Virus record (IMG/VR): IMGVR_UViG_2648501498_000002
DNA from: a virus
Lineage: Duplodnaviria; Heunggongvirae; Uroviricota; Caudoviricetes
Length of the DNA stretch: 13,614 nt
Strand: one strand, 5' to 3'
Shown here: positions 6,761-6,990 of the stretch, piece after piece
How the letters are laid out: each line of letters starts with the position of its first letter
How positions within the stretch are numbered: the first letter of the stretch is position 1
Notes under the pieces: model-generated
Databases searched by the model: none
What the model was told of the DNA's origin: nothing
The model's input: only the letters and a program-made list of their open reading frames with translations
Position numbers and translations under genes: made by a program

Positions 6761-6811
6761 AATAAAAAAGAGCCAGCGCAGAAGAGAACGGGTAAAAGAG
6801 TCTGCGCTGGC
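6761..6811 (-). terminator. Minus-strand hairpin plus T-run (candidate intrinsic terminator or 3' end of a small RNA)
   Basis: Perfect 11-bp inverted repeat gccagcgcaga (6772-6782) / tctgcgctggc (6801-6811) with an 18-nt loop. On the minus strand the hairpin is followed by tcttttttatt (complement of 6761-6771). No T-run follows it on the + strand. Confidence 0.4.
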
Positions 6812-6990
6812 GTGGGGATATTCCCCGTGGAGAAATGATATGTAACACACATCGGGAACCTTTCTATATAAACATTATCATTATTGTCAATCATAACAGT
6901 CAGGTATTATGACGTTTATGCATCAGGGCCATCAGGAATTAACTGGTGGCTTTTTATTGTTGTCAGCTTCCGGATAACGGGAGACGGGGT

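Follow-up and report, generated by a model that had tools for sequence, protein, structure and literature searches.

EcOnc32, an Hfq-bound small RNA gene in the late region of Escherichia coli lambdoid prophages, and its likeness to Esr41

The stretch of DNA analysed here, referred to as the window, is the 13,614 nucleotide (nt) sequence of IMG/VR virus record IMGVR_UViG_2648501498_000002 (Caudoviricetes). On its minus strand it carries a hairpin with a T-run and an upstream TTGACA hexamer, which the original prediction presented as a candidate antisense small RNA (sRNA) of about 90–100 nt. These elements are the gene for EcOnc32, an Hfq-bound sRNA of E. coli lambdoid prophages that was already catalogued in 2014. 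We consider it probable that EcOnc32 is an Hfq-binding lambdoid-prophage sRNA of pathogenic E. coli that is a paralogue of Esr41, covers the ribosome-binding site (RBS) of its targets and responds to iron.

Among complete E. coli genomes, 565 carry window positions 6690–6925 at 99.6–100% identity. One of these is O157:H7 Sakai, an enterohaemorrhagic E. coli (EHEC), in which the stretch belongs to prophage Sp3 and the window position is the Sakai coordinate minus 894,816. The core (6755–6905) is exact in prophage PP4 of E2348/69, an enteropathogenic E. coli (EPEC), where identity is 99.6% over 1101 nt. EcOnc32 is listed at Sakai positions 901574–901662 on the minus strand of Sp3 (Tree et al. 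2014, Mol Cell, PMC4104026, Table S2), which are window positions 6758–6846, i.e., the same DNA, strand and coordinates. The table gives a peak from Hfq UV crosslinking and analysis of cDNA (CRAC) in five of five datasets, with an area under the curve of 64.7 million, second among the orphan sites, and a northern band of ~112 nt. The record in that paper consists of one supplementary table row plus a probe, and it gives no ends, targets or function. The probe (ATATTCCCCGTGGAGAAATGATATGTAACACACAT) is an exact match to the plus strand of the window at 6818–6852 and therefore detects the minus-strand RNA; the northern blot that had been proposed as a check is thus in print.

The same RNA appears in EPEC under a different label. 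In a data set obtained by RIL-seq, in which interacting RNAs are ligated and sequenced, the feature "E2348C_1013 CDS" (coding sequence) at 1060613–1060672 on the minus strand corresponds to window positions 6763–6822 and is the same RNA as EHEC EcOnc32. It is always the second RNA (RNA2) of a chimera and is represented by ~808,000 reads. The low boundary is 1060613 in each of its four interactions and corresponds to window position 6763, where the U-run ends. EPEC RNA-seq lists E2348C_1013 with a baseMean of 2064, a log2 fold change of -2.9 and an adjusted p of 1e-23 in a table comparing with a strain lacking hfq. The published data on identical DNA therefore show a stable minus-strand RNA that crosslinks to Hfq, depends on Hfq for its abundance and ends at the hairpin and U-run (~6763), and in EHEC and EPEC alike they bear out the sRNA of about 90–100 nt that had been predicted from the motifs. 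The parts of the gene are given below, where types A and B are the two sequence types of the element that are described further on.

6763–6856, minus strand: EcOnc32 small RNA gene, ~91–94 nt, 3' end at ~6763 (RIL-seq), 5' end predicted at 6853–6856
6890–6885, minus strand: -35 hexamer TTGACA, unchanged between types A and B and also present in the Esr41 promoter (ATTGACAA)
6868–6863, minus strand: candidate -10 hexamer TATAGA with a 16-nt spacer; TATAAA in type B
6885–6867, minus strand: Fur-box-like 19-mer AATAATGATAATGTTTATA, which fills the -35/-10 spacer (16–17 nt)
6837–6853, minus strand: 5' hairpin HP1 (GAUGUGU-GUU-ACAUAUC), present in the minimum free energy (MFE) and centroid structures
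6843–6827, minus strand: seed region ACAUAUCAUUUCUCCAC, with 6836–6827 single-stranded in the fold
6814–6826, minus strand: hairpin HP2 (GGGGA-AUA-UCCCC), the palindrome GGGGATATTCCCC
6772–6811, minus strand: terminator hairpin with an 11-bp stem and an 18-nt pyrimidine-rich loop
6763–6771, minus strand: terminator tail UCUUUUUUA, with the RIL-seq 3' boundary at 6763

The inverted repeat is perfect, as originally described. Its arms at 6772–6782 (GCCAGCGCAGA) and 6801–6811 (TCTGCGCTGGC) are 11 nt each, 100% complementary and separated by an 18-nt loop. On the plus strand the repeat is preceded by A6 (6764–6769) and followed by GTGGGG, and therefore the hairpin with UCUUUUUUA reads as a terminator only on the minus strand, which agrees with the T-run having been assigned to that strand. 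The G+C-rich 11-bp stem, the U-run directly after it and the RNA 3' boundary at 6763 are those of an intrinsic terminator. A consensus promoter and terminator scan of the window reported neither this terminator nor the TTGACA promoter; the terminator was overlooked because its 18-nt loop is atypical and the rule permits only loops of 3–8 nt, and the promoter because the -10 rule demands a T at position 6. The terminator loop (6783–6800, minus strand) contains CCCGUUCUCUUCU, a stretch shared without change by type A, type B and a decayed form from an Stx2i phage; the loop in Esr41 is 7 nt. This pyrimidine-rich loop might be a second pairing site or a site of Hfq contact.

Secondary structure modeling of the minus-strand RNA (6875–6760) gives a delta G of -38.7 kcal/mol, compared with -20.0 +/- 2.8 kcal/mol for 200 dinucleotide shuffles (z = -6.7), and none of the shuffles is as good. 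The fold signal is above chance. A second hairpin had been noticed within the RNA; HP2 is present, with coordinates one base to the right of the 6813–6825 first assigned to it. It is retained in five of five aligned relatives, mostly unchanged or with G.U pairs. In HP1 the single substitution between types A and B changes the G.U pair 6850/6840 to A-U, which is also the pair in phage Evi. What supports the structure is its thermodynamics, the homology and the experimental 3' end.

The minus-strand TTGACA at 6890–6885 is as first described, and the A/T-rich -10 sequence pointed out with it (the complement of tctatata at 6863–6870) yields TATAGA at a spacing of 16 nt. The start of homology to the Rfam Esr41 model, together with the promoter geometry, places the predicted transcription start at 6853–6856, which would give an RNA of 91–94 nt. 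A second minus-strand promoter, CTGACT-18-GATAAT at 6903–6874, was returned by the promoter scanner. Type B and Esr41 retain neither of its hexamers, which is why it was rejected as the main promoter; the RNA from it, ~105 nt, would nevertheless be nearer to the northern size. The 19-mer in the promoter spacer, AATAATGATAATGTTTATA, matches the Fur-box consensus GATAATGATAATCATTATC at 15/19 positions; the highest-scoring box in the intergenic region between entC and fepB has the same score. In local dinucleotide shuffles a score of 15 is reached in only 0.27% of cases, and the expectation for the whole window is 0.03 matches. The match is still 15/19 in type B although this segment has diverged, and the best match in the Esr41 promoter is 12/19. 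This suggests that Fur may repress the EcOnc32 promoter.

The assignment to the Esr41 group comes from covariance models and alignment. At gathering thresholds Rfam has no match in the whole window, and ARAGORN finds no tRNA there; similarities to Esr41 and STnc100 surfaced only in a permissive Rfam scan. In that scan the Esr41 model (RF02676) matches 6762–6851 on the minus strand over its full length (model positions 1–74) with 32.3 bits and E = 0.001. Genuine Esr41, also listed as EcOnc14, is an Hfq-dependent sRNA with a length of 74 nt, encoded on the O157:H7 island SpLE1, and the Sakai copy scores 108.6 bits on the same model. A local alignment of EcOnc32 to genuine Esr41 has a score of 28, against a maximum of 26 in 1000 shuffles. 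Both RNAs have, in the same order, a 5' hairpin, a single-stranded CAUUU(U)CUCCA seed, a GGGG-loop-CCC(C) hairpin, a GCCNGC terminator and a U-run. This architecture is recovered for EcOnc32 in the MFE and centroid folds, in the covariance model alignment and in the consensus fold of five relatives. The seeds are near-identical (CAUUUCUCCAC versus CAUUUUCUCCAU) and ATTGACAA is common to both promoters at -35. The shared order of elements, seed, -35 hexamer and alignment are the reason for calling EcOnc32 a paralogue of Esr41 that stands outside the curated family.

Positions 6836–6827 (AUUUCUCCAC) are unpaired with a probability of ~0.99 in the predicted fold, and the seed is identical in types A and B, with CACAUUUUCUCCAU as its Esr41 equivalent. 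RNase E crosslinking, ligation and sequencing of hybrids (CLASH) in Sakai recovered four hybrids between EcOnc32 and ECs0632 (entC) at 706302–706362, which is the leader and start codon, and two hybrids with the start of ECs1655, a 61-aa gene of prophage Sp8. The sRNA halves of the entC and ECs1655 hybrids begin at ACAUAUCAUUUCUCCACGGGGAAU (6843 leftwards). In EPEC RIL-seq the top specific partner is the entC 5' untranslated region (5'UTR), with 263 chimeras, an odds ratio of 14 and p = 4e-165; the other partners are the nlpD-rpoS region (537 chimeras), the intergenic region IE2 (72) and the dnaK 5'UTR (28). Chimeras with the entC ribosome-binding region are thus seen by two independent interactome methods in two pathotypes.

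Duplex folding of the full-length sRNA against 100-nt targets was tried and set aside, as the long duplexes are no better than those of shuffles, and folding restricted to the seed was used instead. The seed-restricted duplex with entC has a delta G of -28.1 kcal/mol, and 2 of 2000 shuffles are as good. With ECs1655 the value is -27.2 kcal/mol, with 14 contiguous pairs over GGAGAAAUGAUAUG, which is perfectly complementary to the seed, and 0 of 2000 shuffles are as good. In these predicted duplexes the pairing spans the Shine-Dalgarno sequence and the AUG. The plus strand opposite the seed (6829–6845) reads GGAGAAATGATATGTAA, i.e., a Shine-Dalgarno sequence, a spacer, an ATG and an immediate stop, and therefore the sRNA seed is the antisense of an RBS-like motif. 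The same 14-mer as in this region forms the real RBS of ECs1655 in prophage Sp8.

EcOnc32 is most likely a trans-acting, possibly iron-responsive, RBS-occluding sRNA. In the proposed mechanism, transcription would start at ~6853–6856 from the TTGACA(6890–6885)-16 nt-TATAGA promoter, and the RNA would fold into the 5' hairpin, an unpaired, CU-rich seed (AUUUCUCCAC, lengthened by ACAUAUC), the GGGG/CCCC hairpin and the terminator. With Hfq, the seed would pair over the Shine-Dalgarno sequence and start codon of the target and block its translation. From the chimeras and the duplexes we infer that EcOnc32 regulates entC, which would be the best-supported target, with the prophage gene ECs1655 second. 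Hfq-assisted occlusion of the RBS is the simplest reading and agrees with the reports on Esr41. The Fur-like box in the promoter spacer could make expression iron-responsive, in which case a prophage RNA would modulate iron acquisition by its host, as has been reported for Esr41. A more specific proposal is tentative and perhaps somewhat doubtful: that EcOnc32 is repressed by Fur and blocks entC translation, so that the prophage throttles enterobactin under iron starvation, and that EcOnc32 and Esr41 form a horizontally spread family of sRNAs that rewire iron acquisition in EHEC and EPEC. In this proposal EcOnc32 would have been overlooked partly because databases annotate the locus as a protein-coding gene.

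Several points weigh against this view of EcOnc32. The 32.3 bits of the Esr41 match are far below the gathering score of 102 for that family. The candidate -10 hexamer is weak, with 4/6 matches and no T at position 6, and the predicted 91–94 nt disagree with the published ~112 nt, which would put the 5' end at ~6874. The Fur-like box is a sequence match only and lies within A/T-rich DNA. Chimeras denote proximity and not the direction of regulation, and a literature search found no reporter or mutational test of entC regulation by EcOnc32. The covariation that had been suggested as a check is weak, because essentially two haplotypes exist: the consensus fold of five relatives contains a single compensatory pair, and its alifold covariation term is +0.8. 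The RNA is also absent from the main-text discussion of the Tree 2014 and EPEC RIL-seq papers, and the literature search found no paper with EcOnc32 in its main text.

In a more sensitive search the element is found in 603 of 5426 complete E. coli genomes (~11%), always on the chromosome and mostly in EHEC and EPEC lineages. Among deposited phages, a scan of a phage collection found it only in phage Evi. Seventy copies from fetched loci fall into two types. Type A is that of Sp3. Type B is ~86% identical and is located downstream of stx1AB or beside TerB/DUF3927 genes. The same two types are seen in 67 IMG/VR contigs, which represent ten distinct flank sequences. Identity between the types is 96% in the RNA core (6856–6805), 77% in the promoter segment and 73% in the 3' flank, and type B retains the terminator stem, which there has a bulge and one G.U pair. 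A third, decayed variant is present in the Stx2i prophage of E. coli CFIAFB20190172 (2503–2590, minus strand), downstream of stx2B and with a different holin adjoining. Its terminator and part of the seed (CUUUCUCC) are recognisable, and it has no TTGACA promoter. A scan of one genome per species with the 19-mer GGGGATATTCCCCGTGGAG gave as its sole match a contig of Bacillus sp. AFS015802 (4181–4199), which is a chance match because its flanks are unrelated.

By its gene order, compared with annotated relatives, the window represents a lambdoid prophage's late region. The genes around EcOnc32 are the following, and endolysin, Rz and terminase genes come after the holin gene.

4507–5130: Q antiterminator gene
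5367–6125: membrane protein gene
6211–6369: gene for a DUF3927 protein
6670–6763, plus strand: remnant of nanS-p (SASA esterase), from alignment with phage 434 and E2348/69 prophages
6991–7206, plus strand: gene for an S21-type class II holin

The next genes rightward of the RNA locus in annotated relatives, i.e., holin, endolysin and Rz, are all on the plus strand, in agreement with the earlier statement that no minus-strand protein gene lies upstream. A plus-strand terminator-like hairpin with a T-run (AGGGCCATCAGGAATTAACTGGTGGCTTTTTATTG) is located at 6925–6953, in the interval that separates the sRNA promoter from the holin start (6991), and is kept in type B with one stem mismatch. It may be a 5' structure in the holin mRNA or may terminate a plus-strand transcript. 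An sRNA gene of the PasD/EcOnc13 type is found at 6380–6585 on the plus strand, convergent with EcOnc32. It matches Rfam STnc100 with 37.7 bits and E = 4e-6, below the gathering score of 47, and has its own plus-strand terminator at 6556–6574 and the published PasD1 seed context (UGUGAG) at ~6548. Further downstream there is a strong cluster of Fur boxes on both strands at 9430–9454 (GTAGATGATAATCATTATC, 16/19, plus overlapping 15/19 matches); at least 15/19 is expected ~0.03 times per shuffled window. This cluster is intergenic, between a ylcI/ynfO-like open reading frame (ORF; 9092–9286, minus strand) and the terminase small-subunit gene (9675–10220, plus strand).

In the nanS-p remnant, 6670–6693 are the first 24 nt of the gene and 6694–6763 the last ~70 nt; the remainder is deleted. 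The full 1851-nt nanS-p is present at the same place in phage 434 and in E2348/69 PP2 and PP5. Since the ends of nanS-p are kept and the middle is deleted, the terminator hairpin lies directly 3' of the old nanS-p stop codon. In phage 434, PP2 and PP5 a terminator has the same position directly after the nanS-p stop, and there it ends other leftward RNAs. From this conserved position it could be argued that the hairpin is a bare terminator or insulator with no RNA product, either what is left of the 3' end of a leftward gene now lost, or a barrier shielding nanS-p or stx from antisense transcription. That seems very improbable, as the RNA upstream of the hairpin is the best-conserved segment (96% versus 73–77% for the flanks), is very abundant on Hfq and is homologous to a characterised regulator, Esr41.

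The RefSeq annotation of the locus suggests a different product. A 132-aa "hypothetical protein" (ECs_0817/E2348C_1013) is placed at 6450–6848 on the minus strand, where it overlaps the sRNA together with its terminator, spans the nanS-p deletion joint and runs antisense to PasD. A minus-strand protein gene, either this ORF, which RefSeq annotates in hundreds of genomes, or a 58–72 aa ORF starting from 6852 or 6894, with AAAGG 6–7 nt before the ATG at 6852, is again very improbable. The transcripts end at ~6763, inside both ORFs, and no Pfam family is matched at cut-off. The 132-aa ORF crosses the nanS-p deletion joint and is antisense to PasD, and where nanS-p is intact it is annotated as a frameshifted pseudogene. 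As for the shorter ORF, type B loses the ATG at 6852 and a 1-nt indel shifts the frame. The RefSeq ORF is probably a mis-annotation that masks the sRNA in the EPEC RIL-seq tables.

The location of EcOnc32 also bears on the role in lysis timing, or in regulation of the cargo gene, that was first proposed for it. EcOnc32 lies between the Q/pR' region and the holin gene at 6991, ~140 nt upstream of the holin start and on the opposite strand, and therefore any late read-through transcript would be fully complementary to it over ~90 nt. A cis-antisense regulator could tune lysis timing by processing or termination of the Q-antiterminated rightward RNA, and convergent sRNA pairs occur at the "moron" site downstream of pR' in many lambdoid prophages, among which Sp3 is named (PMC4104026). 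We judge this to be improbable, though less so than a protein gene or a bare terminator. Uninduced lysogens, where the late transcript should terminate upstream, contain abundant EcOnc32 bound to Hfq, and the paralogue Esr41 has the same seed yet lies outside any late operon (SpLE1). The recorded partners are the entC RBS, ECs1655, the rpoS leader region and the dnaK 5'UTR, i.e., trans mRNAs and not the late operon, and no data on lysis timing were found. EcOnc32 is antisense in orientation only. Neither lysis timing nor regulation of the cargo gene finds support in these data, and a part for EcOnc32 in the timing of lysis is improbable.

EcOnc32 is no new find, since it was catalogued in 2014 and recurs unnamed in later interactome tables. 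What may be of use is the linking of scattered records: EcOnc32 of EHEC, "E2348C_1013 CDS" of EPEC and, probably, the "Esr41" hits reported near PasD. EcOnc32 is among the most abundant Hfq ligands, and entC is its top mRNA partner by two independent methods. If the Fur box and the repression of entC hold true, a prophage modulates siderophore production in major pathogens. The "hypothetical protein" over the locus looks like a mis-annotation worth correcting. Judged from the sequence and these records, the locus is modestly interesting for its likely control of entC, its possible Fur box and its apparent mis-annotation as a CDS.

Among known sRNAs of the same niche, PasC (79 nt) and PasA, "pathogenicity-associated" sRNAs of EPEC (homologues EcOnc51/52), are likewise leftward between nanS-p and a class II holin gene, the position and orientation that EcOnc32 has. 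PasC and the 236-nt form of PasA in E2348/69 end at a terminator homologous to that of EcOnc32, after the nanS-p stop (GCCAGCG...CGCTGGCUUUUUUU), with the same position and stem base (GCCAGCG/CGCTGGC). Membership of EcOnc32 in the PasA/PasC family was considered and rejected, as the bodies of the RNAs align no better than shuffles (349/1000 and 165/1000 score as well). The alignable part is limited to the U-run and the 3' half of the terminator, and the PasA seed (GCCAGCACCU, in PasA's own terminator) is absent from EcOnc32. Two other RNAs were set aside as homologues: EcOnc15 (Sp15, stx1) is a different RNA that sits between Q and stx1A on the pR' strand, and EvrS/Esr023 (CP-933N) is a different RNA between a regulator gene and an esterase gene. 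A 2026 survey of Pas sRNAs reports frequent "Esr41" covariance model hits beside PasD and describes PasD loci of this type as PasD "alone"; these hits are probably the EcOnc32 locus.

AgvB and AsxR are, like EcOnc32, Hfq-binding prophage sRNAs located at the "moron" site and oriented convergently to the late transcript; they act as sponges of core sRNAs. Since AgvB, AsxR and EcOnc03 have the same niche and orientation, convergent at the 3' side of the moron site, EcOnc32 could be an anti-sRNA of this type that sequesters a core-genome sRNA instead of regulating mRNAs. This is unlikely, and we rate it below a cis-antisense role. The AgvB (RF02702) and AsxR (RF02703) models have no match in 5100–7100 at E <= 10, and EcOnc32 is longer than these anti-sRNAs of 51–60 nt. 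In the retrieved CLASH rows and the four retrieved RIL-seq rows its partners consist of 5'UTRs, RBS regions and intergenic regions, with no known sRNAs among them.

Esr41 is one of the closest known systems, and the reading of EcOnc32 as its paralogue allows for several differences. The terminator loop of EcOnc32 is 18 nt longer, and its 5' hairpin has another sequence and register. EcOnc32 is located between Q and the holin gene in a lambdoid late region, whereas Esr41 is in SpLE1 (O-island 43/48), downstream of iha. The Fur-like box is a feature of the EcOnc32 promoter and not of the Esr41 promoter. Repression of the iron genes chuA, cirA and bfr has been reported for Esr41, which pairs close to their RBS; the extended seed of EcOnc32 (ACAUAUCAU) provides longer complementarity to entC. 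RyhB, a core-genome, Fur-repressed and Hfq-dependent sRNA that acts on iron-metabolism mRNAs, follows the logic proposed here for EcOnc32, but is a functional analogy only and has no homology to it. RyhB promotes enterobactin synthesis. Unlike this effect, pairing of EcOnc32 with the RBS would be expected to lower the translation of entC.

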